Below, in pieces: positions 555-63,664 of a stretch of DNA of 64,000 nt. The notes beneath the pieces are model-generated. The model searched no databases. It was not told the DNA's origin and saw nothing but the letters and a program-made list of their open reading frames with translations. The translations under genes and the position numbers were made by a program. Each line of letters opens with the position of its first letter. Position 1 is the first letter of the stretch. The stretch is from an uncultured Cytophagia bacterium (GTDB taxonomy: Bacteria > Zhuqueibacterota > Zhuqueibacteria > Residuimicrobiales > Residuimicrobiaceae): NCBI GenBank assembly GCA_964436305.1, contig CAYTCI010000004.1:11964-75963 (forward strand), given 5' to 3'.

Positions 555-1343
555 CTAAAAGGGAAGAGTATATGAGATTGTGAAGCCGCTGCCGTCGGAG
601 GCCGGCCCGCTCGTTCCCGGATCGGCGAGAAACTCGATCTGGCGCAGTTTTTTCGGAAAGACAAAGAGCGCGTCGAGAAAATTGAAGGCGTGCAGCCCTG
701 CAAGAGAAAAAAGGGCCGCGCGACGCCAGGTCTCCGCTTGCTGGTAGCGGTCATGGGCCCTGCGGACCGCCAGCCAGGCCTCGGGCTCCAGTGCCAGCTG
801 CCGGCTGGCCGACCGATAGTCCGCCACCCGGGCATTGTACTCGTCCTGCCGTTGCGTGAATTGATTGTGGGCATAGGCCAGCGAGAGCATCGCGCCCCCC
901 TCCAGGACCTGGAGGATGCGGGATTTGGTCTTTTGCTCGGTGTAATCCTGACCCCAACCGGGAAAAACCAGGGAACGGGCCACCGCCATCTTGCGCGTTT
1001 TGGGAGTGAGCATGAAAGTGATCGTTTCGATCTTGCGCGCGCCAAAATCGATGTCGCGCGAGACGGTCTCATAACCGCGTTTCTCGGCGTAGAGCCGGTA
1101 GCGCCCGCTGAGCTGATAGGGGAAGGAACAGGGGGTTTTGCCGATGATCTCGCCTTCAATGGTCACTGTGGCGCCGCTGGGACGGGATTCGATCATGAAA
1201 CCCTTGGCCGCATCCTGGTTTCCCTGCGCCCGGAGCGTGCTGCCCGGAGAGCAAAGCAGAATCAGCAAGAGGAGCGTGAGGTGTTGGCCGTGCTGCCAGC
1301 ATCGGCTGGCCAGTAAGGGTAACTGTGTTTTTATCTGCTGCAT
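555..1343 (-). CDS. PEGA domain-containing secreted protein
   Basis: ORF 555..1448 (-). The start is chosen at the internal Met (MQQIKTQLPLLAS...), which opens a signal-peptide-like segment. A PEGA-like motif is present (ATVTIEGEIIGKTPCSFPYQLSGRYRLYAEKRGYETVSRDIDF). It lies 12 nt upstream of the FN3 lipoprotein gene and is probably co-transcribed with it. Confidence 0.55.
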   Translation of the reverse strand: MQQIKTQLPLLASRCWQHGQHLTLLLLILLCSPGSTLRAQGNQDAAKGFMIESRPSGATVTIEGEIIGKTPCSFPYQLSGRYRLYAEKRGYETVSRDIDFGARKIETITFMLTPKTRKMAVARSLVFPGWGQDYTEQKTKSRILQVLEGGAMLSLAYAHNQFTQRQDEYNARVADYRSASRQLALEPEAWLAVRRAHDRYQQAETWRRAALFSLAGLHAFNFLDALFVFPKKLRQIEFLADPGTSGPASDGSGFTISYTLPF

Positions 1344-1382
1344 GCAAGCCTCACAAATCACTAATTTTAGCCAAAAAAGAAC

Positions 1383-1411
1383 TTGACAAACCGACTGCCG
1401 TTTTGTATTTT
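1383..1411 (+). promoter_or_regulatory. Sigma-70-like promoter (TTGACA-N17-TATTTT)
   Basis: TTGACA sits at 1383-1388, followed by a 17-nt spacer and TATTTT at 1406-1411. It is located in a low-GC intergenic region. Confidence 0.3.
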
Positions 1412-1417
1412 GTGCAG

Positions 1418-1518
1418 ACAAAAAAAGCCCACGGCAGCTTGTGCGCAAGCACGAGCCGCAGTTGTGGCGACGCTGCCAGCATTAATGACTTGGCCGGTCT
1501 GCTGGCAGCTTTTTTTTT
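1418..1518 (+). ncRNA. Candidate small RNA (promoter-to-terminator unit of about 100 nt)
   Basis: The unit lies downstream of the 1383-1411 promoter. It has a small hairpin gcttg-tgcg-caagc (1436-1449). A terminator-like stem GCTGCCAGC (1472-1480) pairs with GCTGGCAGC (1501-1509) and is followed by a T9 run (1510-1518). There is no convincing ORF on this strand. Confidence 0.25.
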
Positions 1519-17947: not shown

Positions 17948-17973
17948 CTACCCGCATCCAGGGCTATCCTGTT

Positions 17974-19839: not shown

Positions 19840-22800
19840 GTGCGTCTCTTCTTTAAAATCGTCGCCGGACTCCTCCTGCTGCTCTTCGTGGCCGCCGCCG
19901 GCATCCTGACCATCCTCTATCGGCGCGGCGATCTCCATCGCCAGGTCCAGTCGGCGCTGAGCCAGATTTTAGCCGAAACTCTCAATGCCCGGATCGAGAT
20001 CGGCCGCTGCGACGGCTCCCTCCTGCATACCCTGGAGATCGAATCGGTCCGCCTCTTCCAGGAGGCCGACACTCTGGCGCAGATCGATACCCTGCGTTGT
20101 CACTGGCAGCCCATCAGTTTGATCTGGGGCGAAATCACCCTCGACCGGATCGAGGTCAGCGGTCTGCGCCTCTCCCTGCACCAGTTCGCCGACCGGAGCT
20201 GGAATTACCAGCGTTATTTCAAGACGTCGTCCGACAGCAGCCGTTCGCCCTGGATCCTCCGGCTCCGGAGCCTGCAGCTGCGCGCTGCCGAGGTCTCGCT
20301 GTGCTCCGCCGCTGGCGGCTTTCCGCCGCTACAGATCGACATTCCCTCTCTTGCCGGCGCGGGGCGGCTCAGCAGCCGGGGCTGGCAGGTCGAACTGGCG
20401 GACGCCCGTCTCGCGTTCACTCCCCCTGGTCTCACCATTCCGGCCCTCGAAGCACGGGCCCGGGGCGGTGAGCGTTTTCTCGAGCTGGAGAGTCTCCGGC
20501 TGGCCACGCCGGACTCGCGGCTGCGCGGCCGGCTCAGGGCGCACCTCGGCCATGCTCCCCTTTTCGCCGCGGACCTGCGCCTTGATTCCCTCGCCGCAAC
20601 CGACCTCAGCCCCCTCACCGGCTGGAGGCCACCCTTTGCCCGGGCCCGGATCGAATTGACAGCCTCCGGCCGGCCCGACTCGATCAGCCTCGACCTGCGC
20701 GCCGGCGCACAACAAGGCCAGCTGCACCTGCAAGGCTGGGTCAAACCCGCCGGGATGGCGGCGGGCCGCCTCGAACTGACCGCGCTGGAGACCGATTCGC
20801 TGCTGGATCTGCCCGGCCGCCTGGACGCAGATCTCACCTTCTCCGGCGCCGGTTTTTCCACCGCCCATGGCCGCTGGCAAGCCAGCGGCGCGCTCTCCCA
20901 CAGTCTGCTCAGCCGCCATGGCCTCGGCATGGTTCCCCTGTCGGCCACGCTGGCGGAGAGCCTGGTAACCCTCCAGCTGGAGAGCGCCGGTGCTGCCGGT
21001 AGCCTGCAGGCCGCCGCCGCCCTCGATCTTGGCGCCCGGCCGCACTACGATCTCACCCTGGCAGCCGAGGGGCTCGATCTGGCCCCCCTTACCGCTGCGC
21101 CCGCCCTGGCCAGCCGCCTCCGTCTCCATCTCCACCTCGCCGGTCAGGGCTTCGATCCCGCAGCCGCACCGGCGCAGCTGCAGCTCGCCGCCGGCTCCTC
21201 CACCCTGGCCGGCTTCGCGCTCGACACGCTTTATGCGGCCGGAGGGGCCACGCTCGGCGGTGTACGCCTGGATACCCTCCGGATCGCCGCTCCGGGTTTG
21301 CATGGCCAGGGCAGCGGCCGCTGGGACTGGAACGGCCCGCTCGATCTGACCTGTGCGCTGCAACTCAAAAACCATCGCAGCCTGGCCCCGCTGCTGGGTG
21401 CTGACTCCCTCCGCCTCAATGGCCTGCTGCAGGGGCGGCTCGCCGGGCCGCCCGATTCCCTCACCTTTGAAGCCACCGCCCGCCTGCAGGACAGCCGCTT
21501 CAATACCCTGCGCTTTAGTGAGATCCACGCCGCTCTCGCAGGCACACGCGCCTCCCGCTTGAAAGCATCGCTCGGACTGACCGCCGGCGCCATCGCCGCG
21601 GGTAGCGCCCTGCACGCTGATTCGCTTGCGCTCCACGCCGACTATGACGGGCGGCAGCTTGCCGCCCAGAGCCGCCTGGTCTTCAATGACAGCCTGCGCG
21701 CTGCCGTGGCGCTCAGAGCCGACGATCAGGATTCGCTCTGGCAGGTCAGCCTGCAGCGGCTGGAGCTGCAGCAGCGCGACCAGCTCTGGCATCTGGAGGG
21801 GCCGCTCCCGCGGCTGACCCTGCAGCCGGCCGGGTTCAGGCTCGCTGATTTCGCCCTGGTGCAGGGGCGCCAGCGCCTCGAGATGAACGGCAGCCTGGGT
21901 CTGGCCGACAGCCTCGCCTTTCGCGTCGACCTGGAGAACCTCGATCTCGCCGCCCTGGCGCCGTGGTTCCCGCCTATCCCCGGCATGACCGGCGCCATGA
22001 CCTGGCGCGCCGACCTCACCGGCCTCGCCGCCAGGCCCTGCATCGTCTCCTCACTGCAGGTCGACGATATCCAGCTGGCCGGCCTGCCCGCCACCAGCCT
22101 GCAGGTCAGCGGCCGGCTGGAGGAGGCCCGGCTGACCTGGGAAGGCTCGCTGAACCAGGGTCCTGAAAACAGCGCCCACTTTGGCGGCACGCTGCCCCTG
22201 CGCCTTCGCTGGCCCCTGCCGCACCCCCTGATCGAGGACGACGATCCGGTCGACCTCTCGCTGCGGACCCGCGACCTCAAGGCCGGCATTCTCGCCGCCT
22301 TCATCCCCGGTCTCGACATCAGCGGCACCCTCAGCGGTGACCTGACCATCGGCAAGAACTGGGGCGATCCCCAGCCGGGCGGCTACCTCGAGTGGCGCAA
22401 CGGCACCTTCCTCGCCCCGTTCCTCGGCAAACCCTACAAACCCGTCACCGCCCGCCTCGAACTGGCGCCGCCACTCCTGTTGCTCCAGAACCTGCGCGCC
22501 ACCGGCGGCGAGGGTCAACTCAACGGTGAGGGCTCCTGGCGTTTCACCCTCGACCGCGGCCATCTCTCCTTCCAGGAGATGCAGCTGCGCCTCAAGGCGG
22601 ATCATTTTACCGCCGCGGAGAGCCCTGAACTCACCCTCGTCCTCGACGGCACCCTGACGCTGACCGACCAGCTGACACGCCCCAAGCTCAACGGCGCTCT
22701 GCGCGTCGAACGCGCCCGTATCGATCTGGCCGCTTTCACCGAGACCCCCTCCACCCTCTTCCAGGCCGACCTGCCGCTGCTGCTGGTGGCGCGCGGCGAT

Positions 22801-23628
22801 ACCAGCCGGCAGAGCTATGACCGCAAGGCCCTCCTGCCCGCCTGGCTGCCGGTGGTCGAGCGCAGCCGCGGCTCCATCAAGCTCGAGATCCCCCGCAACA
22901 CCTGGCTGCGCACCCCGGAAATGAACTTCGAGATCTCTGGCGATCTCGATCTCGCCAAGGAAGGCGAGGATTTCGGCCTCTTCGGCGCCATCCAGATCGT
23001 CCGCGGCAATTATGACCTCTTCAGCCGCCGTTTCGACATCGAGGAGGGCACCCTCACCTTCGCCGGCGGTGACAACCTGCCGGAGATGTCTCTCAAGGCG
23101 GAGCATGTTTTCCGCAGCCAGGACAAGATCAAACATACTCTTGGCTTCACCGCCACCGGCGAGCTGCGCAAGCCCACCTTCGCCTTTACTCTCGACGAGG
23201 CGACCATCACCGAGTCCGATGCCGTTTCGTACCTCGCCTTCGGCCGCAGCTTCGGTGATCTGACCCACGGCGAAAAGAATGATCTGGTGCAGAATCAGCT
23301 GCAGATGAGCGGCGATGCCTTCAAACAGCTGCTGGCCGGGCAGATCGCCGGAGAGGTGACCCGTTCGCTCCAGCAAAAGCTGGATCTTGACGTCATTGAG
23401 TTCCGCGGCGACCAGAACTGGCGGCAATCGACGGTGGTGGTGGGCAAATACCTCACCAACGACCTCTATCTGAGCTACGAGCGCCCGATCAACCTGGGGC
23501 GGACCAATGAAGTGGCGCCCGAACAGGTGACCCTGGAATACGAGATCCTGCGCTCGCTCTTTCTGCAGGCCATCCGCGGTGATGAAAAAAATACCGGATT
23601 TGATCTGATCTACAAGTGGGAGAAATAG
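19840..23628 (+). CDS. tamB: Translocation and assembly module protein TamB (DUF490 C-terminus)
   Basis: The start is GTG, with an AGGAGG RBS. The product is 1262 aa, with an N-terminal TM anchor (LLLLLFVAAAGILTILY). A C-terminal DUF490-like segment is present (RGNYDLFSRRFDIEEGTLTFAGG...LYLSYERPI...LEYEI). Confidence 0.8.
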   Translation: MRLFFKIVAGLLLLLFVAAAGILTILYRRGDLHRQVQSALSQILAETLNARIEIGRCDGSLLHTLEIESVRLFQEADTLAQIDTLRCHWQPISLIWGEITLDRIEVSGLRLSLHQFADRSWNYQRYFKTSSDSSRSPWILRLRSLQLRAAEVSLCSAAGGFPPLQIDIPSLAGAGRLSSRGWQVELADARLAFTPPGLTIPALEARARGGERFLELESLRLATPDSRLRGRLRAHLGHAPLFAADLRLDSLAATDLSPLTGWRPPFARARIELTASGRPDSISLDLRAGAQQGQLHLQGWVKPAGMAAGRLELTALETDSLLDLPGRLDADLTFSGAGFSTAHGRWQASGALSHSLLSRHGLGMVPLSATLAESLVTLQLESAGAAGSLQAAAALDLGARPHYDLTLAAEGLDLAPLTAAPALASRLRLHLHLAGQGFDPAAAPAQLQLAAGSSTLAGFALDTLYAAGGATLGGVRLDTLRIAAPGLHGQGSGRWDWNGPLDLTCALQLKNHRSLAPLLGADSLRLNGLLQGRLAGPPDSLTFEATARLQDSRFNTLRFSEIHAALAGTRASRLKASLGLTAGAIAAGSALHADSLALHADYDGRQLAAQSRLVFNDSLRAAVALRADDQDSLWQVSLQRLELQQRDQLWHLEGPLPRLTLQPAGFRLADFALVQGRQRLEMNGSLGLADSLAFRVDLENLDLAALAPWFPPIPGMTGAMTWRADLTGLAARPCIVSSLQVDDIQLAGLPATSLQVSGRLEEARLTWEGSLNQGPENSAHFGGTLPLRLRWPLPHPLIEDDDPVDLSLRTRDLKAGILAAFIPGLDISGTLSGDLTIGKNWGDPQPGGYLEWRNGTFLAPFLGKPYKPVTARLELAPPLLLLQNLRATGGEGQLNGEGSWRFTLDRGHLSFQEMQLRLKADHFTAAESPELTLVLDGTLTLTDQLTRPKLNGALRVERARIDLAAFTETPSTLFQADLPLLLVARGDTSRQSYDRKALLPAWLPVVERSRGSIKLEIPRNTWLRTPEMNFEISGDLDLAKEGEDFGLFGAIQIVRGNYDLFSRRFDIEEGTLTFAGGDNLPEMSLKAEHVFRSQDKIKHTLGFTATGELRKPTFAFTLDEATITESDAVSYLAFGRSFGDLTHGEKNDLVQNQLQMSGDAFKQLLAGQIAGEVTRSLQQKLDLDVIEFRGDQNWRQSTVVVGKYLTNDLYLSYERPINLGRTNEVAPEQVTLEYEILRSLFLQAIRGDEKNTGFDLIYKWEK

Positions 23629-32733: not shown

Positions 32734-32905
32734 AACCGGCTGCCCCCGCCTCTCCGCTCCCTTGCATGCCGAAAAATTCAGCGAAACGGAGCGTTTATCC
32801 CTCCGACCGCGTGAAGTATGCAACATTTTCTGATTTACGGTGTTAAATCCTGAGAAGCATCGTATCCAGACACCTCGTTGTTTCATCCTTGATCCAGGAG
32901 TCTTT

Positions 32906-35900
32906 ATGAAACGTATCCTGCCAGCCCTTTGCCTGGGGCTGATCTTTCTGAGCAGCGTTGCCAGCGCGCAATATTTCGGCAAAAACAAGGTGCAATACAC
33001 CAACTTTAACTGGCAGTATGTACAGTCCGAGCACTTTAACGTCTACTTCACCGAGGGCGGCGACAAGATCGCCACCTTTGTCCTGGAAACCGCCGAAGAC
33101 GCTTACCGGCAGCTCCAGCACTCCTTCCGCTATCAGCTGACGGACCGTATCAAGATCATCCTTCACAACAGTCACAACGATTTTGAGCAAACCAATGTCG
33201 ATCTCTCCGAGCCGGAGGAATCGGTCGGCGGATTCACCGAATTCTTCAAGAACCGGGTGGTCATCCCCTACGACGGTGAATGGGAGGCCTTCCGCCATGT
33301 CATCCATCACGAACTGACCCATGCGGTCATGCTGCAGATGCTCTATGGCTCGGGCGCCCAGTCGATCATCACCGGCATCACCCAGATGCAGGTGCCGCTC
33401 TGGTTCATCGAGGGACTGGCCGAATACGAAAGCCGCGGCTGGGATATTGAGAGCGACATGTTCATGCGCGACGCGACCGTCAACGGCTATGTACCCGAAA
33501 TCCCCTATCTCAATGCGTTTCTCGCCTACAAGGGCGGGCAGTCGGTCTGGAATTACATGGTCGAGCGCTACGGCCAGGAAAAGGTCGGCGAAATCCTCGG
33601 CAAGGTGAAGGTCAACAAGAACTTCGACCGCGGTATGCAGCAGGCCATCGGCCTCAAGATGGAGGACCTGACCAAGCGCTGGCACCGCTATCTCAAGCGC
33701 AAATATTGGCCCGATGTCGAGAACCGCAGCGAGCCCGAGGAGATCGCCACCCGCTTGACCGACCACCGCAAGGATGGCAGCTTTGTCAACACGAGTCCGG
33801 CCCTGAGCAACCACGGCGACAAGCTCGTCTACAAATCGGACAAGAGCGACTATTTTGACCTCTATCTGATGAGCGCCATCGATGGCCGGGTGCTGAAACG
33901 CCTGGTCAAGGGCCAACGCGCCGGCAACCTCGAGGAGCTGCAATGGCTCAAGGGACCCGGCATGAGCTGGAGCCCCGATGACAAAAAGATCGTCTTCACC
34001 GCCGGCGCCGGGGGCCGCGACGCCATCCATATCGTCAATGTGAAAAAGGGCAAGATCGAAAAAAGCATCAAGCTCGATCTCGATGGCGTCTTCAATCCCA
34101 GCTGGAGCCCCAATGGCGACGAGATCGCCTTCACCGGCCTGAAGAACGGCCAGAGCGATATCTATCTCTACAATCTGCAAAGCCGGGCCCTGCGCAATCT
34201 CACCCGGGACCCCTTCAGCGATATCGAACCGAGCTGGGCGCCGGATGGCAAGACCCTGCTCTTCTCCAGTGACCGTGGCGACCGCGCCGCCGCTACCCTG
34301 CCGGCCACTTTCAACCCCCGCGACCTCGAGATGAAGAACTATGACATCTACGAGATCACCGTCGCCGACGGCGCCGTCCGGCGCATCGTCGAGAGCGCCT
34401 TCAGCGAACGCGTGCCGGTCTTCGCTCCCGATGGCAAGACCATCGCCTTCTCCAGCGACCGCCAGGGGGTGAGCAACATCTGGCTGAAAAATCTCGAGAG
34501 CGGCGAAGAATGGCCCGTCACCAACGTCCTCACCGGCGCCTTCCAGCCCTCCTGGGGCGGCAGCGCCGACCGGCTGGTCTTCACCTCCTTCTATTTCGCC
34601 GGTTATGACCTCTACCTGCTCAAGAATCCCCTGGATATCAAGCCCGGCAGCATCACCGTGCCGGAGACCAAGTTCGTCGAGCAGAAGCGCAAGGGCATAC
34701 GCGAAACCTTCGATGAGGAGGAATCCCTGGCGATGAAACCGGGGCTCTCCCCCATGCAGACCGAGGAGACCCGGCAGTACCGCGACTTTGTCTTCGACAA
34801 CAAGTTCGCCGAGGGGGATCTGGTCTCCCAGGTCAACAAGCGCAAGATCTTTCTCGACTCAACCGACTACAAGATGCCCACCGGCCAGTACAAGATCAAC
34901 AAGTACAAGGTCGAGCTGACGCCCGACCTCATCTACGGCGGCGTGGGCTACAGCCAGTTCTACGGCACCCAGGGGATGACCACGATCATGCTCTCGGACG
35001 TTCTGGGCAACCATCGCCTCGATATCGGCCTGGGCCTCTATGGTGATTTCCGCAACGCCGATTACGCCCTCACCTACTATTACCTGCCGCACCAACTCGA
35101 CATCGGCGCCGGCCTCTATCACAACGCCTATTATTACTACTCCGATTATACCGGCTATGTCCGTGACCGCAACTACGGCCTGAGCCTGTTGCTGAGCAAT
35201 CCCTTCAACCGTTACGAGCGGCTCAGCTACGGTGTGACCGCCATGGGCATCAACCGGACCTACATGGAGATTCCCGACGATATCACCGACCAGCTGATCA
35301 AGCTCGGTTATCTCTCGCCGCGTGACCGCTTTTTCCTGATGAACAATCTGACCTATACGCGCGACACCAGTGTCTGGGGCTACACCGGGCCGACCAACGG
35401 CACTGGCATGTCGTTCGGCGTCACCTACAGCCCGGGCCTGGGCAAGAACGGCATCGATTTCGCGACGGTCCGGCTGGATTATCGCCGTTACACGCGGCTG
35501 ATGCGCAATTACACCTTTGCCACGCGTCTGGCCACCGGATTCAGCGAGGGGCGCAACAAGCAAAAATTCTTCCTCGGCGGCCTGCCCAATTGGCTCAACT
35601 ATGGCTTTTTCAACGGCATTCGCGTCGAGCACATCGAGGATATCTATTTCGCCTCCTTCGAAATGCCGATGCGCGGCGCGGACTATTACACCCTCGAGGG
35701 CAACCGTTTCGCCCTGGCCAACCTCGAATTCCGCTTCCCGCTGATCCATCAGGCGATCATCGGCTTCCCTCTGCCCATTGCCCTCGGCAACATCGGCGGC
35801 GCCCTCTTCACCGATATGGGCATGGCCTGGGACAAGGGGGAATCGATCAAGCCGTTTGTCAAGGCGCCCAATGGTCTTTTCAAGACCAAGGATATGTTCG

Positions 35901-36031
35901 CCAGCATCGGCTTCGGGGTTCGCATGAATATCGGCTTTGCCCTGCTGCGTTACGATCTGGCCTGGCCGACCAATTTCTACAACACCTCGAAATCGCCGCA
36001 GGCCCTTTGGTCGCTCGGCGCCGATTTTTAG
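32906..36031 (+). CDS. Omp85-type beta-barrel protein with N-terminal HExxH metallopeptidase-like domain and TolB/PD40 beta-propeller (paralog 1)
   Basis: An AGGAG RBS precedes ATG 32906. The signal peptide is MKRILPALCLGLIFLSSVASA. The N-terminal domain carries HHELTHAV...WFIEGLAEYES (HExxH plus downstream Glu). Multiple PD40 repeats follow (SWSPDDKKIVFTA, PSWSPNGDEIAFTG, PSWAPDGKTLLFSSDRGD, FAPDGKTIAFSSDRQG). The C-terminus has Omp85 barrel motifs (FFLGG...MRGADYYT, EFRFPL, GALFTDMGMAW, GFGVRMNIGFALLRYDLAWP) and ends ...GADF. Confidence 0.75.
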   Translation: MKRILPALCLGLIFLSSVASAQYFGKNKVQYTNFNWQYVQSEHFNVYFTEGGDKIATFVLETAEDAYRQLQHSFRYQLTDRIKIILHNSHNDFEQTNVDLSEPEESVGGFTEFFKNRVVIPYDGEWEAFRHVIHHELTHAVMLQMLYGSGAQSIITGITQMQVPLWFIEGLAEYESRGWDIESDMFMRDATVNGYVPEIPYLNAFLAYKGGQSVWNYMVERYGQEKVGEILGKVKVNKNFDRGMQQAIGLKMEDLTKRWHRYLKRKYWPDVENRSEPEEIATRLTDHRKDGSFVNTSPALSNHGDKLVYKSDKSDYFDLYLMSAIDGRVLKRLVKGQRAGNLEELQWLKGPGMSWSPDDKKIVFTAGAGGRDAIHIVNVKKGKIEKSIKLDLDGVFNPSWSPNGDEIAFTGLKNGQSDIYLYNLQSRALRNLTRDPFSDIEPSWAPDGKTLLFSSDRGDRAAATLPATFNPRDLEMKNYDIYEITVADGAVRRIVESAFSERVPVFAPDGKTIAFSSDRQGVSNIWLKNLESGEEWPVTNVLTGAFQPSWGGSADRLVFTSFYFAGYDLYLLKNPLDIKPGSITVPETKFVEQKRKGIRETFDEEESLAMKPGLSPMQTEETRQYRDFVFDNKFAEGDLVSQVNKRKIFLDSTDYKMPTGQYKINKYKVELTPDLIYGGVGYSQFYGTQGMTTIMLSDVLGNHRLDIGLGLYGDFRNADYALTYYYLPHQLDIGAGLYHNAYYYYSDYTGYVRDRNYGLSLLLSNPFNRYERLSYGVTAMGINRTYMEIPDDITDQLIKLGYLSPRDRFFLMNNLTYTRDTSVWGYTGPTNGTGMSFGVTYSPGLGKNGIDFATVRLDYRRYTRLMRNYTFATRLATGFSEGRNKQKFFLGGLPNWLNYGFFNGIRVEHIEDIYFASFEMPMRGADYYTLEGNRFALANLEFRFPLIHQAIIGFPLPIALGNIGGALFTDMGMAWDKGESIKPFVKAPNGLFKTKDMFASIGFGVRMNIGFALLRYDLAWPTNFYNTSKSPQALWSLGADF

Positions 36032-37898: not shown

Positions 37899-39158
37899 AT
37901 GAAACGAAACCCGATTTGCCTGCTGGCCCTGCTTCTTGCCACCCTGACCCCGGTTTTCGCCCAGAACCGGCCGGGGCCGCGCGGCCGGGATGCCATGGGG
38001 CCCGATATCTTTCAGATCCGCTTTTTCTGCTCGACCCGCCCGGAACAGCGCCCCATGGGCAGCGTCGATGCCTATATCCGCATCGCCAACGATGCCCTCT
38101 CCTTTCTCAAACAGGACTCGAGTTCCTGGCAAGCCCGCTATGATCTCGAGCTGATGATCTACGGCGGCAGCCGTGAGCTGGCCGCCTACAAGATCCTGCG
38201 CGACACGGTCACGGTCAGCCGCTTCGAGCTTACCAATTCGCGCATCAATCCTCGCACCCATGCCATGCACTTTAATCTCAAGCCCGGCGACTATACCTGG
38301 CGGCTCAAACTCCTCAATGCCGAGCAGCTGCCGCTGATCGAGCGTGAGGATCGCCTCAAGGTCCCCGATTTTGGCCTGGACCAGCTGCAGATCAGCGATA
38401 TTTTGCTGGCCGACAGCCTGGATTGCTCGGCGGGGCTCTACGCCCTCAATTTGCGCGGTGTTTTCAGCCGCAACAGCGGCGCCGTCGGTGTCATTTATGA
38501 GCTCTACCCCCCCGCCGGCGCCGACTCGGTGCGGACGCAGCTCACCCTGAGCGACCTCTCCGGCCGCAAGATGATGGAACAGCGTGAGAGCCGGCCGGCC
38601 GAGCCGGTGCTCCACGGCTGCATCGACCTGGGCAAGGAGATCACCAAGCCGGGCGAGTATCTCCTGCAGATCCGCGCCAGTGCGGGTTCGCGTTCGCTGC
38701 AGACCTCGCAGCGTCTCTTCCTGCTCTGGGGGCATGCCGCCGGCCCTGGCCTCAGCAACGAGGCGGCCGTCGAACAGCTCGCCCTGATCGCCAAGGGCAG
38801 CACCATTCGGGAGATCCTGCGGGCGCAAGGGGAGGAACGCGAAAAGCTGGTCGATGCCTTTTGGGCGCAACGGGACCCGACGCCGGGCACACCGGAGAAC
38901 GAATTGAAGGACGAGTTCTACCTGCGCCTCGATTTTGCCAATCAGCAGTTCGGCGAGCCGGTGAGCGGCCGGCCGGGGTGGCGTACCGATCGCGGCCGGG
39001 TCTTCATCCAGAACGGCACTCCGGACCAGATCGAGAAGCAGGGCGGCGAGATGGGCATGGCCTCCGCGGAAATCTGGAGCTACAATCGCCTCAACCGCCG
39101 CTATCTCTTCGTCGATCGCATGAACAATGGCGAATTCCGCCTGCTAAAAACCGAGTGA
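37899..39158 (+). CDS. GWxTD domain-containing secreted protein
   Basis: The signal peptide is MKRNPICLLALLLATLTPVFA. The C-terminal region has the GWRTDRGRVFIQNGTPDQIEK block typical of the GWxTD family. Confidence 0.65.
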   Translation: MKRNPICLLALLLATLTPVFAQNRPGPRGRDAMGPDIFQIRFFCSTRPEQRPMGSVDAYIRIANDALSFLKQDSSSWQARYDLELMIYGGSRELAAYKILRDTVTVSRFELTNSRINPRTHAMHFNLKPGDYTWRLKLLNAEQLPLIEREDRLKVPDFGLDQLQISDILLADSLDCSAGLYALNLRGVFSRNSGAVGVIYELYPPAGADSVRTQLTLSDLSGRKMMEQRESRPAEPVLHGCIDLGKEITKPGEYLLQIRASAGSRSLQTSQRLFLLWGHAAGPGLSNEAAVEQLALIAKGSTIREILRAQGEEREKLVDAFWAQRDPTPGTPENELKDEFYLRLDFANQQFGEPVSGRPGWRTDRGRVFIQNGTPDQIEKQGGEMGMASAEIWSYNRLNRRYLFVDRMNNGEFRLLKTE

Positions 39159-57152: not shown

Positions 57153-57184
57153 AAAAAAAAGCCTCGACACCCTGGTGTCGAGGC
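57153..57184 (-). terminator. Rho-independent terminator of rpsT (it also closes guaB on the other strand)
   Basis: The 11-bp stem gcctcgacacc/ggtgtcgaggc (57161-57183) is preceded by an A8 run on the plus strand, which reads as a T8 tail on the minus strand. Confidence 0.7.
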
Positions 57185-57246
57185 TACAGTTCTTGCCGAT
57201 CTTGCGCCGGACGGTGTTGGGCCGCCCGCAGCGATGCAGAGAATCC

Positions 57247-57613: not shown

Positions 57614-58735
57614 ATGGAGACTGCCATCCGGATTGAACCGGTCACCACGGCTGCGGGGCGCAAAGACTTTATCAAATTTCCCTGGCGTGTTTATCACAAT
57701 GATCCCCTCTGGGTGCCCCAGCTCATCAGCGACGAAATCAAGATCCTCGATCCGGCCAAGGGCACCTTTTTCCAGTTCGGCGAAGCGGCACTCTTCATGG
57801 CCTACCGCGGTGAGGAGCCGGTGGGGCGCATCTCTGCCCAGGTCAATCATCAATACGAACGCTATCACGACAACCACACCGGATTCTTCGGCTTTTTCGA
57901 GAGCATCGATGACCAGGCCGTGGCCGACGCCCTCTTCGGCGCTGCGACCGCCTGGCTGCGCAGCAAGGGCAAGAGCCGGGTCATGGGTCCGATGAGTTTC
58001 TCAATGTATGACATCAGCGGCGTCCTCATCGAGGGCAACGACACCATGCCCTGCATCCTCACCGCCTACAATCCGCCCTATTACGAACCCCTCTTCGACG
58101 CCGCCGGCATGAAAAAGGCGATGGACTGGTACGCCTTCCTCGTAAGCCAGGACTCTGTATTGCGGCCGGGACTTCAGCGCATCGCCAGCCGGGTGATGCA
58201 GCAGGAGGGGCTGGAAATCGTCCCCCTCGATATGAAGATCTTTGATCAGCGGGTGCATGAGGTGGCGCGCATCTTCTCCGACGCCTGGATGGAAAACTGG
58301 GGCCATGTCCCCTTCACGGACGGCCAGGTGCAGGATCTGGTTCACGAACTCAAAATGGTGATCGTCCCGGAGGTCACCCTCTTCGCCCTCTATCACGGCG
58401 AATGCATTGGTTTTTCTCTCAGTGTCAAGGATGTCAATCCGGCCCTGCAAAAAGCCAACGGTCGTCTCTTCCCCTTTGGCTTGCTCAAGCTCCTCTGGCA
58501 TGTCCGCAGGACCAGCCGGTTGCGCACCATGGCGATGGGCGTGCTCAAGGAGCACCGCCACCGCGGCATCGATATTGCCTTTTATCTTAAAACGATCGAG
58601 GAGGGGCGCCGCCTGGGCTTCTACGACAGCGAATGCTCGATCATCCTCGAGATCAACAAACGTATGATCAGCGCGCTCGAGGATCTTTCGGCCCGGCGCT
58701 ACAAGACCTTCCGCTTTTACGAAAAAGAGATCTGA
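57614..58735 (+). CDS. Putative GNAT-fold N-acyltransferase (Acetyltransf_6/FemAB-like), function unknown
   Basis: The product is 373 aa, has no signal peptide and has a C-terminal block (MGVLKEHRHRGIDIAFYLKTIEEGRRLGFYDSECSIILEINKRM) resembling GNAT acyl-CoA binding cores. The family assignment is tentative. Confidence 0.45.
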   Translation: METAIRIEPVTTAAGRKDFIKFPWRVYHNDPLWVPQLISDEIKILDPAKGTFFQFGEAALFMAYRGEEPVGRISAQVNHQYERYHDNHTGFFGFFESIDDQAVADALFGAATAWLRSKGKSRVMGPMSFSMYDISGVLIEGNDTMPCILTAYNPPYYEPLFDAAGMKKAMDWYAFLVSQDSVLRPGLQRIASRVMQQEGLEIVPLDMKIFDQRVHEVARIFSDAWMENWGHVPFTDGQVQDLVHELKMVIVPEVTLFALYHGECIGFSLSVKDVNPALQKANGRLFPFGLLKLLWHVRRTSRLRTMAMGVLKEHRHRGIDIAFYLKTIEEGRRLGFYDSECSIILEINKRMISALEDLSARRYKTFRFYEKEI

Positions 58736-58786
58736 GTTGGCGCTCCCGCCCGGGCGGGAGCAGCCTGTAACCAACGGCAGCCACGC

Positions 58787-61708
58787 ATGAATGCAACCAA
58801 CCTGACGCATACGCTCCGGCGCGCCGCCCTCCTGCTGGCGGCGCTCGCCGGACTGGCAGCCGCCCCCGCGGAGGCGCAGTACTATTTCGGCCGCAACAAG
58901 GTCAACTACCACCACTTTGAGTGGCGCGTTCTCCAGACCGAGCATTTCGAGATCTATTACTATCCGGAAATGCGCGAACTCACCGAAATCGGCGCCGCCT
59001 GGGCCGAGGAGAGCTACCATTTCCTTGAGAACCGGTTCCATCTCAGCCTGCGCGAACGCATCCCCCTGATCTTTTACGCCACCCACGCCCATTTCCAGGA
59101 GACCAACACCCTGCCCTACCTCATTCCGGAGGGTATCGGCGGTTTTTTTGAGTACATCAAGGGGCGGGTCGTGGTGCCTGCCAACGGCTCCATCCCCGAA
59201 TTCAAAAAAGTGATCCGCCACGAACTGGTGCATGTCTTCACCCATGCCAAAGTGAACCGGGTGCTCAAGGAGCACAAGCAATTGAACAATCCGGGACTGC
59301 CGCTGTGGTTCAGCGAGGGGCTGGCCGAATACTGGTCGAGCGGCTGGGACAGCGAGGCCGAGATGTTCCTCCGCGACGCGGTCATCAATAACTACCTCTA
59401 CCCCGTCTCGGCCATCTACCAGATCAACGGCACCTTTTTGATGTACAAGGAGGGCCAGAGTCTCCTCCGTTTCATCGATACCCATTGGGGGGAGGACAAG
59501 ATCCTGCAGTTGATCGATAATGTCTGGATGGCCCCCTATTTTTCCGAGGTGATGACCCTGACCCTGGGCATCGATCTGCATGAATTCGATGAACGCTGGA
59601 TCTATGCCCTCAAGAAGGAGAGCTATCCCCTGCTGCAGGACAACGATGCGGCCTCGCGGGTGAGCCTGCAGGTCACCCGCCAGGGGATCAACATCAAGCC
59701 CGCCTTCTGGCAAGCGGATACAGCCCGGGTGGTTTTTATCTCCAACCGCAGCGGCTATGCCAACATCTATCAGGCGCCCCTGGCGGGCAGCCCGCGCGAA
59801 CCCAAACTGGAGGTTCTGGTTGCGGGCGAACGCAGCGAGGCCTTTGAATCCTTTCACCTGCTCAACAGCGCCATCGACGTCAACCGCAGCGGCGAGCTCG
59901 CCTTCATCTCCAAGGCCGGCGAAAGGGACCGGCTCTACATCATGGAGCTGTCCGCAAAAAAGATCACCGGCCGGCATGCGTTCGAGCCGCTGGTCTCGCT
60001 CTACTCCCCCCGCTGGTCGCCCGACGGCAGCCGCATGGTCTTTTCCGGTCTGGCCTTCAGCGGCCGCCGGGATCTCTATCTCTTCGAGCGCGCGACCGGG
60101 CAGCTGACGCCGCTGACCGACGATGCCTGCGACGACAAGGACCCGGTCTTCTCACCCGATGGCCGCCGGATCGTCTTCAGCTCGGACCGCGGCGGCACCG
60201 GCGAACGCGGGGTCTACAACCTCTTTCTCTGTGATCTCGATGCGGGCGGCATCACGCCGCTGACCGGCGGCCACGGCCATGATCAAATGCCCGCCTGGTC
60301 GCCCGACGGCAGCCATATCGCCTTTATCTCCGACCGCAGCGGCACGCAGAATATCTGGGTGGTGCCGGCGCCGGTCCGGGCCCTCTCCCCCGCCCAGCGT
60401 CTCGGACTGGAGCCGGTGGCTGAGGCCCGCCAGCCCCTTCCCGCGGCGCCGCGCCAGCTGACCCATTTTATCACCGGGGCCTACGATCCGCAGTGGACCC
60501 CCCGCGGGGATCTGCTCTTCACGATCTTTGAAAAATTCTCCTTCAACATCGGTCTGATCAAGGGGATGGCCGACAGCCTGCACCAGCCCGTGCCGCCCGT
60601 GGCCGCCAACCTGGCCGCTGACTCCCTGTCGACCGACCGCTGGGACTACCCGCGCCTCAGCGGCGCCGGCGAGAGCCGCGACCTCCGCTACAAGCCCAAG
60701 TACAGTCTCGACATCGCCCAGTCGCAGATCACCCAGGATCCCATTTTTGGCACCTCCGGCGGCATGCAGCTCGCCGTCTCGGACCTGCTCGGCAATTACC
60801 AGTACTTCTTCCTCCTCTACAACACCGCCCGGGTCCAGAGCGAACTGCTCTCCAGCTTTAACGTCGCGGTCTCACGGGTCGACCTCTCCCATCGCACCAA
60901 CGTCGCTGCCGGCCTCTTTCACTTCGCCGGCCAGTATTACAACCGCTATGACTACTGGTTCTGGGAACGGCGCTATGGCGGTTACACCGCCCTCAGCTAT
61001 CCCCTCTCGAAATTCAACCGCGTCGAGGCCAGTCTCAATGTGCGCTGGTCGGATAAAAAGTGGTTTCTCAACGACTACCGCCGCAAGGCCCTGCTGGTCT
61101 CCAATTTCGTCTCCTACGTTCAGGACAACTCGCTCTGGGGCCCGACCGGCCCGCTGGACGGCAGCCGGATGAATTTCACCCTGGGAACGACCGTCGATGT
61201 CGCGCACGCCAATGTCCGCTTCCTCACGGCCATCGTCGATTACCGGCGCTATTTTCGCATCTCCACCCAGAGCACCCATGCCCTCCGCTGCTGGGCCCAG
61301 ATCAACAACGGCAAGGAATCCACCCCCTTCTATATGGGCGGCAGCTGGGATCTGCGCGGTTACCGGCTCTGGAGCCTCTGGGGCACCAAACTCGCCATGG
61401 TCAGCAACGAGCTGCGCTTTCCTTTCATCGACCGCTTCGTGCTCAAGTTCCCGATCGGCGGGGTGGCCATCAGCAGCATCCGTGGGGCGCTCTTCTGCGA
61501 CCTCGGCAACGCCTGGGACCAGCGTCTGCCAGACCTGCTTGGCAGCACCGGCTGTGGCATCCGTTTTCAGCTTGGAGGGATGCTGGTGTTGCGTTTCGAT
61601 ACCGGCCGCAAATTCATCCTCACGGATCCGGGGCGGTTTTATCAGCGGAACAACTGGCAGTTCGAGCGCAACTGGTTCACGCAATTCTTTTTCGGCTGGG
61701 ATTTCTGA
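58787..61708 (+). CDS. Omp85-type beta-barrel protein with N-terminal HExxH metallopeptidase-like domain and TolB/PD40 beta-propeller (paralog 2)
   Basis: The signal peptide is LLLAALAGLAAAPAEA. The peptidase-like domain carries RHELVHVFTHA...WFSEGLAEYWS. PD40 repeats follow (PRWSPDGSRMVFSG, PVFSPDGRRIVFSSDRGG, PAWSPDGSHIAFISDRSG). The C-terminal Omp85 barrel motifs are FYMGGSWDLRGYRLWSLWG, ELRFPF, FCDLGNAW and GCGIRFQLGGMLVLRFDTG, and the protein ends FFFGWDF. The N-terminus (QYYFGRNKVNY) parallels paralog 1 (QYFGKNKVQY). Confidence 0.75.
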   Translation: MNATNLTHTLRRAALLLAALAGLAAAPAEAQYYFGRNKVNYHHFEWRVLQTEHFEIYYYPEMRELTEIGAAWAEESYHFLENRFHLSLRERIPLIFYATHAHFQETNTLPYLIPEGIGGFFEYIKGRVVVPANGSIPEFKKVIRHELVHVFTHAKVNRVLKEHKQLNNPGLPLWFSEGLAEYWSSGWDSEAEMFLRDAVINNYLYPVSAIYQINGTFLMYKEGQSLLRFIDTHWGEDKILQLIDNVWMAPYFSEVMTLTLGIDLHEFDERWIYALKKESYPLLQDNDAASRVSLQVTRQGINIKPAFWQADTARVVFISNRSGYANIYQAPLAGSPREPKLEVLVAGERSEAFESFHLLNSAIDVNRSGELAFISKAGERDRLYIMELSAKKITGRHAFEPLVSLYSPRWSPDGSRMVFSGLAFSGRRDLYLFERATGQLTPLTDDACDDKDPVFSPDGRRIVFSSDRGGTGERGVYNLFLCDLDAGGITPLTGGHGHDQMPAWSPDGSHIAFISDRSGTQNIWVVPAPVRALSPAQRLGLEPVAEARQPLPAAPRQLTHFITGAYDPQWTPRGDLLFTIFEKFSFNIGLIKGMADSLHQPVPPVAANLAADSLSTDRWDYPRLSGAGESRDLRYKPKYSLDIAQSQITQDPIFGTSGGMQLAVSDLLGNYQYFFLLYNTARVQSELLSSFNVAVSRVDLSHRTNVAAGLFHFAGQYYNRYDYWFWERRYGGYTALSYPLSKFNRVEASLNVRWSDKKWFLNDYRRKALLVSNFVSYVQDNSLWGPTGPLDGSRMNFTLGTTVDVAHANVRFLTAIVDYRRYFRISTQSTHALRCWAQINNGKESTPFYMGGSWDLRGYRLWSLWGTKLAMVSNELRFPFIDRFVLKFPIGGVAISSIRGALFCDLGNAWDQRLPDLLGSTGCGIRFQLGGMLVLRFDTGRKFILTDPGRFYQRNNWQFERNWFTQFFFGWDF

Positions 61709-62877
61709 TGCAGAAGCGGGGAAAAACATTCGGCGGTGAAGGGTTGCCCGGGCACCGCGGCGGGCGGGCAGCGCTCTGGCTGCTCCTCGCCCTGCTGGCG
61801 ACCGGCTGTCACCACTTCAACTACAAGAGGGCGGCGGACCCCCTCCTCCCCCTTTGGCCGCAGCTCGGCGGCGGAGCGAATCGCAATGCGGCCGTCGCCT
61901 TGGAACCGCAGCTGCCGCTCGAGGCGGTCTGGCAGAAGCAGACGACCGGCGTCATCCAGCCCTCGCTGGTCGGCCTGGGGAACTGGCTCCTCTTCACCAC
62001 CGGCGAAGGCCAGGTAGGGGGCTTTGACCTGCGTACGGGCAAGGGCCTCGGCAAAACCATCGGGCGCAATACCACCGCCCTTACCTGCGCCGCGGGCGAC
62101 AGCGGCCTGGTGCTGATCCGGCGGCTTCGCAAAAATAACGTTCTCTTCTACCACCTCGGCCGCGGGCGGGTGCGTTGGCGTAAAAGCACCGAGCCCATCC
62201 TCGGCGAACCCCTCATCGTCGGCGAGCGGCTCTACCTGGCCACCCTGCGCGGCCGGCTGCTCTGCCTGGCACTGCGGGACGGGACGCTGCTCGCCGAGGC
62301 CCGCCTGCCGCACGACTGCATCGCCGCGCCGGCGATGGCGGACAGCGTCCTGACCATCGGCGACGACCGCGGCCTCCTCCACGCCTTCGATCCACAATTG
62401 CACCCGCTTTGGCGATACGAATGCGGCGGTGCCTTGCGCGCCCCGGCCATCGCCCACGCCGGCTGCTTCTACATCGGTTCCACCAGCGGCCGCTTCTCCG
62501 CCATCGACATCCGCAGTGGTGCCGAGCGCTGGCACTATCTCAGCCCCGGCAAGATCCTCCATGCCGCGGCGGCCACCGACTCCATCGTGGCCGTGGCCGC
62601 CGCTGATGCGCAGCTTTGCGCTCTCGATGCCCGCGATGGCCGGCTGCTCTGGCGGGCCCCGCTCGGCGCCGTTCCGGCCGCTGCCCCCCTGATTTGCGGC
62701 CGCCTCCTCTTTCTTGGTACGGGCGCGGGCAAACTGGGCGCCTTCGCCCTCGACAACGGCCGCGAACTCTGGTCCTTCACCGCCAAAGCCCCGATCGCTA
62801 CGCCACCGATCCTCATCGGCCGGCTTTTATGCTTCGCCACCACCAATGGCCTCCTCTACAGCTTCACCTGGCACTGA
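61708..62877 (+). CDS. BamB-like PQQ-repeat beta-propeller lipoprotein
   Basis: The ATG overlaps the stop of the preceding gene (TGATG). The lipobox is LLLALLATGC. Repeated PQQ-like blades are present (LLCLALRDGTLLAEA, RFSAIDIRSGAERWHY, LCALDARDGRLLWRA, LGAFALDNGRELWSF). The upstream part of ORF 61060 lies inside the preceding gene. Confidence 0.7.
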   Translation: MQKRGKTFGGEGLPGHRGGRAALWLLLALLATGCHHFNYKRAADPLLPLWPQLGGGANRNAAVALEPQLPLEAVWQKQTTGVIQPSLVGLGNWLLFTTGEGQVGGFDLRTGKGLGKTIGRNTTALTCAAGDSGLVLIRRLRKNNVLFYHLGRGRVRWRKSTEPILGEPLIVGERLYLATLRGRLLCLALRDGTLLAEARLPHDCIAAPAMADSVLTIGDDRGLLHAFDPQLHPLWRYECGGALRAPAIAHAGCFYIGSTSGRFSAIDIRSGAERWHYLSPGKILHAAAATDSIVAVAAADAQLCALDARDGRLLWRAPLGAVPAAAPLICGRLLFLGTGAGKLGAFALDNGRELWSFTAKAPIATPPILIGRLLCFATTNGLLYSFTWH

Positions 62878-62893
62878 ATCGGTTCCACCTCCT

Positions 62894-63508
62894 TCACATC
62901 AGCAGGCTCCGCAGCTCCGCCAGTCCCGCCTCGAGATGCTGCCGCACGGCGGCCAACGGGAGAGGATGGCCGAGCTGCCGGAGCGAGGTGACGAACTCTG
63001 CATGCCCGCGCAGCCGGCGATAGTCGGGCTCCCGCGAGGGGTGGGTGAGATAGTGGGCCATTCGCCGGAGATCGGGATCGACCAGCAGCGAGCCCTGGTA
63101 GAAGAAAAGGTTGCGGGATTTGAACATCGAACAGCCGAGGATCTTTTGGCCGTTGACGGCGATGTCGCTGATCCCGGCCGGCTCCGCCCCGAGGTCCGCC
63201 AGCTCCTGCTGCAACCGGGCGATCAGCCAGGCGTTGATCACCTGAAAAAAATGGTAAGGCGAGTCGCTGCGGGCGCTGATGAAGGCGCAGGTGAGACAGA
63301 GGATCCCGGGCATGAGCAGCACCGCGCCCCCGCCGCCGCGGCGCCGGATCACGGCCACGCCATCGCGGCGGCAGGCGTCGAGATGCACCTCCTGGTCGGC
63401 GTGCTGGCCATGCCCGATCACCACCGCGATTCCGCGGGGCTCCCACAATTCGGCGAGGAAGGGGATTTCCGGTCCCACCCGGGTATAAAGCTGGTCATGA
63501 ATATCCAT
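62894..63508 (-). CDS. Lipoate-protein ligase / octanoyltransferase family protein (BPL_LPL catalytic domain, LipM/LplA-like)
   Basis: The motif VAVIRRRGGGGAVLLMPG matches the RRxxGGGAV lipoyl/octanoyl-AMP binding motif. The start is the ATG at 63508; the GTG at 63520 has no spacer after the RBS. Confidence 0.6.
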   Translation of the reverse strand: MDIHDQLYTRVGPEIPFLAELWEPRGIAVVIGHGQHADQEVHLDACRRDGVAVIRRRGGGGAVLLMPGILCLTCAFISARSDSPYHFFQVINAWLIARLQQELADLGAEPAGISDIAVNGQKILGCSMFKSRNLFFYQGSLLVDPDLRRMAHYLTHPSREPDYRRLRGHAEFVTSLRQLGHPLPLAAVRQHLEAGLAELRSLLM

Positions 63509-63664
63509 CGGCCTGTCCACTCCTCTTCTTCGGGACCCCTCTGCTGCGACAAAAATCGGCCCGGCAGGGGAGGATTTAGCTGGAAATTTGTGTTATTTAT
63601 CCTATATTAGAGGGGTGTTGCCGAAGCAACGCGCACCCTGACAGGATGGAGAGCCTGCTGTATC

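Follow-up and report, generated by a model that had tools for sequence, protein, structure and literature searches.

Two overlapping genes near the end of a 64,000-nucleotide stretch of DNA from an uncultured Cytophagia bacterium (contig CAYTCI010000004.1; the whole stretch is called the window here) encode a 973-residue fusion of a zinc peptidase, a β-propeller and an Omp85 barrel, followed by a lipoprotein with the fold of BamB. The best explanation for this locus is that it specifies a dedicated outer-membrane module of two co-translated proteins. Because the lipoprotein gene is translationally coupled to the fusion gene through a stop/start overlap, the two proteins would be made together, and a complex between them is the most likely arrangement, synteny being what points to physical contact. 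As to function, we favor, with middling confidence, a zinc peptidase complex that is anchored in the outer membrane and faces the periplasm. Omp85 proteins are central to outer-membrane biogenesis, and to our knowledge only the members that bear POTRA domains (BamA, TamA, TpsB and PlpD) have been studied so far. The peptidase–propeller–Omp85 subfamily is widespread and has no function assigned; what appears to be new is a BamB-fold lipoprotein coupled to one of its clades, a third gene encoding PEGA domains in most lineages of that clade, and a GWxTD-domain protein beside the other clade. These partner associations define candidate complexes and, with the protease hypothesis, bear on a little-understood part of the cell envelope of phyla related to the Fibrobacteres–Chlorobi–Bacteroidetes (FCB) group.

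Domain architecture of the fusion protein

The fusion is the second of two related proteins in the window, and we refer to it as paralog 2 and to the first as paralog 1. The features of paralog 2 and its partner are listed here by nucleotide (nt) position and strand, with amino acid (aa) positions where these are needed.

58787..61708 (+), paralog 2, a 973-aa fusion of signal peptide, M1-like zinc peptidase, PD40/TolB-type propeller and POTRA-less Omp85 barrel
58787..58876 (+), Sec signal peptide, aa 1-30, with a basic n-region, a hydrophobic core, an AxA motif and an inferred cleavage site (...AAPAEA before QYYF)
58877..58909 (+), conserved mature N-terminal motif QYYFGRNKVNY, aa 31-41
58925..59662 (+), gluzincin catalytic domain (Peptidase_MA_2, M1-like), aa 47-292
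59219-59233 (+), HELVH motif of the peptidase
59306-59332 (+), WFSEGLAEY motif of the peptidase, aa 174-182; a further motif, GGFFE (+), lies at aa 118-122
59690..60559 (+), six-bladed PD40/TolB-type β-propeller, aa 302-591
60560..60700 (+), linker of about 47 aa, aa 592-638, in the place of POTRA domains
60701..61705 (+), predicted 16-strand Omp85 barrel, aa 639-973, ending ...FFFGWDF
61352-61363 (+), LRGY of L6, the long loop joining strands 11 and 12, aa 856-859
61493-61507 (+), FCDLG of strand 13, aa 903-907
61706..61710 (+), TGATG stop/start overlap, with TGA at 61706-61708 and ATG at 61708-61710 sharing an A
61708..62877 (+), partner lipoprotein, 389 aa, lipobox LLATGC, Cys34 at 61807-61809

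An earlier reading of the window made without database searches (the sequence-only reading) had given the size of paralog 2 and quoted several motifs from it, and all of these are present in the translated open reading frame (ORF): HELVH at aa 145-149, EGLAEY at 177-182, FYMGGSWDLRGY at 848-859, GNAW at 907-910 and the C-terminal phenylalanine. Pfam places three domains along the protein, namely Peptidase_MA_2 (PF13485; aa 144-274, 40.5 bits against a cut-off of 32.4), PD40 in three stretches after the peptidase (87.7 bits, above the gathering threshold) and the Omp85 domain (PF01103; aa 707-943, 43.6 bits against a cut-off of 24). The AlphaFold2 (AF2) model, built from an alignment of 84 homologues, has a predicted local distance difference test score (pLDDT) of 84.7 and a predicted template modeling score of 0.81, and its helix at aa 3-23 is that of the signal peptide.

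The N-terminal domain has the sequence hallmarks of a gluzincin, that is, an HExxH motif and, further downstream, a glutamate ligand within (W/F)xxEGxAxY. In the model this domain consists of a five-strand sheet and a helical subdomain, with HELVH in the helix spanning aa 136-162 and EGLAEY in that spanning aa 173-185. WFSEGLAEY resembles WLNEGFAxY, which holds a zinc ligand in M1 aminopeptidases. The invariant stretch G118-G119-F120-x-E122 sits on a strand of the catalytic sheet, 23 aa upstream of HExxH; presumably it is similar in position to the GxMEN exopeptidase motif of M1 enzymes, although its register is different. Among solved structures, no sequence relative of the peptidase domain was found. 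The TolB structure aligns to paralog 2 over the propeller only (247 of 397 residues), and the score above cut-off together with the N-terminal alpha/beta domain that mark a true TolB (TIGR02800) was not found in paralog 2. The propeller also matches the Tricorn_N and Tricorn_2nd models.

The C-terminal part carries the marks of the Omp85 superfamily in its PF01103 score, a predicted barrel of 16 strands between aa 639 and 971 (pLDDT mostly 80-95), and the L6 and strand-13 motifs. LRGY and FCDLG correspond to the L6 (V/I)RG(F/Y) and strand-13 (F/G)xDxG signatures described for BamA and FhaC. With Foldseek, the barrel fold matches BamA and TamA at an E-value of about 1e-10. The POTRA domain that belongs to the superfamily is missing from paralog 2: Pfam gives no PF07244 match, and the linker is modeled as a short helix (aa 594-599), coil and one short strand, with no POTRA fold. 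Since there is no PF07244 match and only a 47-aa linker precedes strand 1, paralog 2 groups with the non-POTRA Omp85 subfamilies.

Residue conservation was assessed in 84 sequences drawn from both paralog clades, which are about 30% identical to each other. At the zinc site, H145, E146, H149, E177, G178 and E181 are invariant, as are W854, R857, F903 and D905 in the barrel, where G907 reaches a conservation of at least 90%. Because these residues are invariant in clades that share about 30% identity, the zinc site and the barrel core are, on the sequence evidence, both under selection, and the invariance of the zinc-site residues would imply an active enzyme. The family is large. A search with the whole of paralog 2 returns more than 4000 database homologues, often annotated automatically as TolB or as “Tol biopolymer transport system component”, and the peptidase domain alone, counted in clusters at 50% identity, matches 3467 cluster representatives at E ≤ 1e-3, 1647 at ≤ 1e-10 and 558 at ≤ 1e-30. 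The peptidase domain is N-terminal in all of the best 150 representatives; 100 of these are at least 880 aa long, and the shorter ones are taken to be metagenome fragments.

A coupled lipoprotein partner

The sequence-only reading had pointed to the TGATG overlap between the fusion and lipoprotein genes, and this is read directly from the junction, ...GATTTCTGATGCAG. To place the overlap in a wider context, we consider a synteny scan that used one genome per species and found 549 loci with relatives, the best 80 of which were examined. Their identity to paralog 2 is 44-60%, as against about 27-29% to paralog 1, which makes them paralog-2 orthologues. Their sources are candidate division KSB1, Calditrichota, Ignavibacteriota, Candidatus Chrysopegis kryptomonas (Kryptonia) and metagenome-assembled genomes (MAGs) labeled Bacteroidota. 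Gene order was counted in the 71 of the 80 loci that have enough downstream DNA, with a phmmer threshold of E < 1e-3. A homologue of the window lipoprotein is the next gene on the same strand (the +1 position) in 67 of the 71, and tblastn adds one more (L052), making 68; the homologue is absent from this position in the remaining three (L015, L045 and L073). The 1-nt stop/start overlap, as TGATG or TAATG, is found in 34 of the 67 pairs, and 19 more have a gap of 0-20 nt, so that the pair is not only conserved in relatives but usually keeps the same overlap or a close spacing. Independent public gene calls give the same order of fusion and lipoprotein.

It might be argued that this adjacency is meaningless and that an unrelated propeller of the PQQ type happens to sit downstream of the fusion gene. 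PQQ_2 propellers are indeed very common and diverse, and the sequence conservation of the partner is low. However, the +1 position on the same strand is kept across at least four phylum-level lineages, half of the pairs with the exact 1-nt overlap, and the flanking genes otherwise vary from lineage to lineage; we therefore regard such a coincidence as barely credible. More generally, chance as the source of the pattern is ruled out because of the full-length homology, the number of homologues and the conserved synteny.

The proposal in the sequence-only reading of a dedicated two-component module thus stands for the pair, which holds together in several phyla, but needs extension in that a third gene is usual among the relatives. 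Its product in 57 loci, where it follows the lipoprotein gene, is about 250 aa long and combines a signal peptide with PEGA domains and a C-terminal region that is hydrophobic. This third gene often overlaps the lipoprotein gene (for example L007:12131-12967 and L090:9256-10068). It is absent from the window at 62878-63600 and from the nearest relatives (L001, L081 and L082), and in all four of these a convergent lipoate-protein ligase gene on the opposite strand follows the lipoprotein gene instead. In one KSB1-like lineage (L090/L091:10126-12913), the +3 gene, on the same strand as the genes for the fusion, the PQQ lipoprotein and the PEGA-like protein, encodes a Tricorn protease homologue with Tricorn_N, PDZ_Tricorn and Peptidase_S41 domains. 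A Tricorn protease as a regular member of the operon was considered and rejected, as it occurs in this one lineage and in none of the 80 genome loci. Two further arrangements were seen. One MAG (MAG283) holds two loci of the paralog-2 type (L053 and L060), each 46% identical to the window protein, which reflects either a further duplication or a mixed bin. A more distant genome (L088:265-8072) has two tandem fusion-like genes of 1011 and 1023 aa, parted by two small proteins with LLPGxGxxYAG, neither of which matches the BamB-like or PEGA profiles.

What kind of protein the partner is can be judged from its family matches, its predicted fold and its residues. The sequence-only reading had described a lipoprotein resembling BamB, and the resemblance holds at the level of fold: the 61708 product matches the PQQ/BamB propeller models, with PQQ_2 (“Outer membrane protein assembly factor BamB”) at 3e-33 and 115.9 bits against a cut-off of 27.6; its AF2 model (pLDDT 84.6) has eight four-stranded blades; and BamB provides the top 14 Foldseek matches in the PDB and most of the top 50, with E-values down to 2e-23, template modeling scores of 0.73-0.82 and 17% identity. 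With its lipobox and this model, the partner is, like BamB, a predicted eight-bladed propeller lipoprotein. The resemblance does not extend to orthology. TIGR03300 and PQQ_2 are the best family matches of the partner, yet its scores lie far under the cut-offs of the BamB equivalog models (99.5 against 285.2 bits for TIGR03300; 73.6 against 423 for NF008351). The residues of E. coli BamB that contact POTRA3 of BamA are L192, L194, R195, D246 and D248. When E. coli BamB is aligned with 67 partner sequences, an alignment at 19% identity and hence indicative, the LSLRG loop that holds the first three falls in a gap in 41 of the 67, the window protein included, and the two aspartates are replaced, D246 by S, A or P and D248 by F, Y or L, so that the BamA-contact residues are not conserved in the partner family. 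We therefore reject the partner as a true BamB orthologue, given its low equivalog scores, the absent contact residues and a fusion that offers no POTRA domain to dock on, and we use “BamB-like” of its fold and its lipoprotein status only.

These observations also bear on a different interpretation of the locus, in which the lipoprotein is a functional equivalent of BamB acting on a multi-POTRA BamA, the fusion is a quality-control protease of the β-barrel assembly machinery (BAM) in the manner of BepA, and the adjacency of the two genes reflects co-regulation. Its appeal lies in the structural matches and best families just described, in the BamA-like POTRA protein that the genome encodes at 17467, and in BepA, which shows that zinc peptidases associate with BAM (PMC8423444, PMC13478230). 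We nonetheless consider it unlikely. The equivalog scores and the deleted or replaced POTRA3-contact residues speak against it, in 68 of 71 loci it is paralog 2, and not BamA, that the lipoprotein gene accompanies, and the paper on the purified BAM complex of Flavobacterium (Bacteroidota) makes no mention of BamB, a propeller or a peptidase.

The likely location of the partner can be read from the residues that follow its lipidated cysteine. In Bacteroidota, acidic residues after this cysteine direct lipoproteins to the cell surface. Acidic residues at positions +2 to +5 are present in only 3 of 60 partner lipoproteins, and because this surface-export signal is absent the partners should remain on the periplasmic face. 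Many partner orthologues (among L001-L080) instead carry C-x-G-L-(K/R)-(I/V/M) directly after, and including, the lipidated cysteine; the window partner differs there, reading C-H-H-F-N-Y-K-R (61810-61830).

Paralog 1 and neighboring genes

Several other features of the window bear on the history of paralog 2 or lie close to the pair.

32906..36031 (+), paralog 1, about 1040 aa from the ATG at 32906; the mechanical ORF, 32840..36031, opens at GTG 32840
37899..39158 (+), secreted GWxTD-domain protein, about 420 aa (PF20094/TIGR04514, 97.7 bits against a cut-off of 28), with a signal peptide in its translation
57614..58735, GNAT-like gene, 373 aa, with a marginal GNAT match (E 2.2e-4, 21.9 bits against a cut-off of 20.7)
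58742-58761 (+), perfect 20-nt palindrome GCTCCCGCCCGGGCGGGAGC, with an 8-bp GC stem, a 4-nt loop and no T run after it
17467-19830 (+), POTRA and Omp85 protein, 787 aa, next to TamB at 19840-23628
555..1448 (-), PEGA and DUF5683 protein, a weak match (1.8e-10) to the profile of the +2 protein, 58 kb away

The start of paralog 1 is probably the ATG at 32906, since its homologues are about 1040 aa long (covering 98% of the ORF) and the signal peptide begins there. According to Pfam, paralog 1 has the same three domains as paralog 2 in the same order, and BLASTP aligns the two end to end at 27% identity over about 1060 columns (E 2e-110), which bears out the shared domain order and the distant similarity claimed in the sequence-only reading. 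Its further claim, that the duplication is ancient, also agrees with the comparison: orthologues of paralog 2 from other phyla are 45-50% identical to it as against 27% for paralog 1 of the same genome, and on this sequence evidence the duplication is old.

The two clades differ in their neighbors. No BamB-like neighbor was found beside the paralog-1 orthologues of five sampled contigs (L083-L087) or beside paralog 1 in the window; in all five of these contigs, as in the window, a GWxTD protein is encoded downstream. The GWxTD gene directly adjoins paralog 1 in three of the sampled contigs, and in the other two and in the window a gene for an S-methyltransferase/MTHFR protein is inserted between them, which in the window begins 1 nt past the paralog-1 stop. 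The GWxTD protein is thus a candidate counterpart of the BamB-like partner.

The POTRA protein at 17467 had been read as part of a TamAB pair, giving three Omp85-family barrels in all. Three such barrels do lie within 44 kb (at 17467, 32840 and 58787), although the supposed TamA scores better as BamA, with 265 bits against the BamA model (cut-off 297) and 153 bits against the TamA model (cut-off 625). It looks, by these scores, like a BamA-like protein beside TamB. Heinz et al. (2015) reportedly describe a BamA-like gene beside TamB in several non-proteobacterial phyla. The PEGA and DUF5683 protein at the other end of the window could be a relocated third component of the module or merely another PEGA protein.

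Immediately upstream of the fusion gene lies the acyltransferase-like gene noted in the sequence-only reading. Its product is a marginal GNAT match with no relatives found in the PDB, and as a neighbor of the fusion it is not conserved beyond the closest relatives: it is adjacent only in L001, L081 and L082, lies about 6 kb off in two Calditrichia loci and is absent elsewhere, and we have rejected it as a member of the module. The hairpin without a T-tail that had been described between this gene and the fusion gene corresponds to the palindrome at 58742-58761. It folds at -24.8 kcal/mol with z = -1.48 against shuffled sequences, which is not unusual for its composition; a terminator scan did not list it, and a scan for promoters and terminators around the operon gave nothing useful. 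A strong intrinsic terminator at 57160-57185 (-), an 11-bp stem followed by T7, comes after the gene for ribosomal protein S20 and is the only convincing one in the 57.1-63.7 kb stretch. Base composition is even across the window.

Proposed role and comparison with known systems

It is informative to consider how the two proteins of the module might be arranged and what they might do together. We infer that the peptidase and propeller of the modeled fusion face the periplasm, because strands 11 and 12 flank L6 just as they do in BamA and this, with the established topology of Omp85 proteins, would start strand 1 on the periplasmic side. The partner lipoprotein would be anchored in the inner leaflet of the outer membrane, and the barrel would mainly hold the complex in the membrane and might also offer a docking site. 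Binding or gating of polypeptide substrates may fall to the two propellers and their cleavage to the zinc site, the activity and the identity of the substrates being conjectural here; the module as a whole would then trim or quality-control polypeptides that are periplasmic or bound to the outer membrane and would not act as an insertase of the BamA–BamB type. We count a link to proteolysis in favor of this reading, in that the propeller matches Tricorn_N and Tricorn_2nd, the best published template for the N-terminal region is the tricorn-interacting factor F3 (1z5h), and one lineage has a Tricorn homologue at +3.

A different orientation would follow if the fusion exported itself in the manner of type V secretion, the barrel moving the peptidase–propeller passenger to the cell surface to serve as an extracellular protease for nutrient acquisition. 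The order of passenger and then barrel is like that of autotransporters and of the original PlpD model, Heinz & Lithgow (PMC4104836) raised the idea for other Omp85–enzyme fusions, and the hosts degrade proteins and polymers and have many secreted enzymes, with large proteins of type IX secretion system type and with FlgD_ig domains encoded nearby. Yet a folded peptidase–propeller of about 590 aa would be an unlikely passenger, judging from the model, for a 16-strand barrel with a 47-aa linker; the L6 motifs that plug the lumen of Omp85 barrels are conserved; the partner lipoprotein carries no surface-export signal; and the enzyme domain of PlpD has itself been shown to be periplasmic (PMC11116518). 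Likewise, neither Pfam nor the model gives paralog 2 the passenger–POTRA–barrel order of type Vd (PlpD-like) proteins, as POTRA is absent. Taken together, these points make self-export very improbable.

Somewhat more weight can be given to the idea that the barrel is still an insertase or translocase for special clients, with the propeller and peptidase replacing POTRA as a receptor or processing site and the lipoprotein as an accessory, although this too we think improbable. The L6 RGY, the strand-13 FxDxG and the C-terminal β-signal are conserved in both paralog clades, each paralog has its own partner (BamB-like or GWxTD), as would fit different classes of client, and Heinz & Lithgow (PMC4104836) proposed an analogy to a BamA–BamB fusion. 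Against this, paralog 2 has no POTRA domain, whereas every studied Omp85 insertase or translocase has at least one (PMC11116518); the invariant zinc site would place catalysis under selection; and no conserved client gene lies beside the pair, the +2 gene encoding a PEGA membrane protein and not a β-barrel.

The periplasm-facing peptidase complex that we prefer has difficulties of its own, and three observations weigh against it. First, the conservation of L6 and FxDxG suggests that the barrel may be more than an anchor. Second, the partner is 21-29% identical where the fusion is 45-60% identical, and this faster evolution is unusual for a tight, obligate complex. Third, the mature N-terminus is highly conserved, with no variation at F34, G35 and N37 among the 84 sequences and conservation of K38 and Y41 at 90% or more, yet pLDDT falls under 50 at aa 24-32 and 34-37, and a protease model leaves the motif unexplained. 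QYYFGRNKV of the mature fusion may be a binding strand for some partner. TolB binds TolA through its N-terminus, and a link between this and QYYFGRNKV is speculative.

A broader proposal can be put forward, although we hold it tentatively and think it more doubtful than the peptidase complex as such: an unrecognized proteolytic machine of the outer membrane may consist of the fusion and the BamB-fold lipoprotein, joined in most lineages by the PEGA protein, on an Omp85 scaffold that would have lost its insertase role, with a second, anciently diverged paralogous machine built around a GWxTD partner. If this is true, KSB1, Calditrichota, Ignavibacteriota and Kryptonia all keep the machine, and a multi-subunit envelope protease has on two occasions been built around the Omp85 fold. 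Such proteases might serve, for example, to control the quality of proteins that are secreted or reside in the outer membrane, in phyla without BamB and BepA-type factors.

The architecture of paralog 2 is not new; it is already known but uncharacterized. Heinz & Lithgow (2014, Front Microbiol 5:370; PMC4104836) listed a “WD40-like Omp85” group among ten Omp85/TpsB subfamilies and likened it to a BamA–BamB fusion, with members in Caldithrix abyssi (H1XQ58), Rhodothermus marinus (D0MEQ5 and D0MCT8) and Chloroherpeton (B3QRX6). Their supplement gives PF07676 repeats with PF01103 and TolB as the best propeller template, and their Table S3 gives Phyre templates for the N-terminal region that are aminopeptidases (1z5h, which is tricorn-interacting aminopeptidase F3 and the best, 4kxd and 4fgm). 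A 2024 paper describes the group as having “divergent WD40 and peptidase domains”. Paralog 2 shares the order of PD40 and then PF01103 with this subfamily and has both of its distinguishing features, a TolB-like propeller and an aminopeptidase-like N-terminus. The catalogue gives no function, topology or partner genes for it, and its main text is silent on the peptidase. In the literature searched there is no report of a coupled BamB-fold lipoprotein, a PEGA third gene, a split into two anciently diverged paralog clades or a GWxTD neighbor; the term WD40-Omp85 occurs in just two papers, “BamB-like” is never paired with Omp85 there, and GWxTD is nowhere mentioned. Within that literature, the partner genes therefore appear to be unreported.

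Comparison with characterized or better described systems places the module between several of them. The BamA–BamB pair of the E. coli BAM complex likewise combines an Omp85 barrel with an eight-bladed propeller lipoprotein, and the L6 and strand-13 motifs are common to BamA and the fusion; however, BamA is without a peptidase or PD40 propeller, the fusion is without POTRA, and bamA and bamB are not adjacent in E. coli (the bamB neighborhood was inspected), unlike the genes of the fusion and lipoprotein. The “OMP-TolB-like” barrels (Mol Biol Evol 2025, msaf138; PMC12204202), proposed as the ancestor of TolB, have a periplasmic six-bladed TolB-like propeller, so that barrel and propeller are in common with the fusion, and they are often annotated as TolB, as are many homologues here. 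A Rossmann-like domain adjoins their propeller, whereas in paralog 2 a zinc peptidase precedes it, and the locus thus bears on the published proposal that TolB descends from barrel–propeller proteins. The Tricorn protease and its M1 factors F2 and F3 recall the module in both of its soluble domains, the propeller matching Tricorn models and the peptidase being M1-like with F3 as its published best template; that system, however, is cytosolic and archaeal, and here the domains are fused to an outer-membrane barrel.

With respect to function, the nearest analogy to the proposed mechanism is BepA, with no homology implied. BepA is a zinc metallopeptidase that acts at BAM in the periplasm on stalled outer-membrane proteins (PMC8423444, PMC13478230); it belongs to M48 and not to the M1-like Peptidase_MA_2, is soluble and docks on BAM, and has a TPR domain instead of a propeller. 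PlpD (PMC11116518), the only studied Omp85 protein with a fused enzyme, has a periplasmic patatin-like domain, contrary to an earlier model of secretion. It differs from the fusion in having POTRA, in being a lipase and a homodimer, and in having no propeller and no known lipoprotein partner. Nonetheless, PlpD carries its enzyme N-terminal to an Omp85 barrel and reuses the scaffold for a purpose beyond insertion, as we propose for the fusion.

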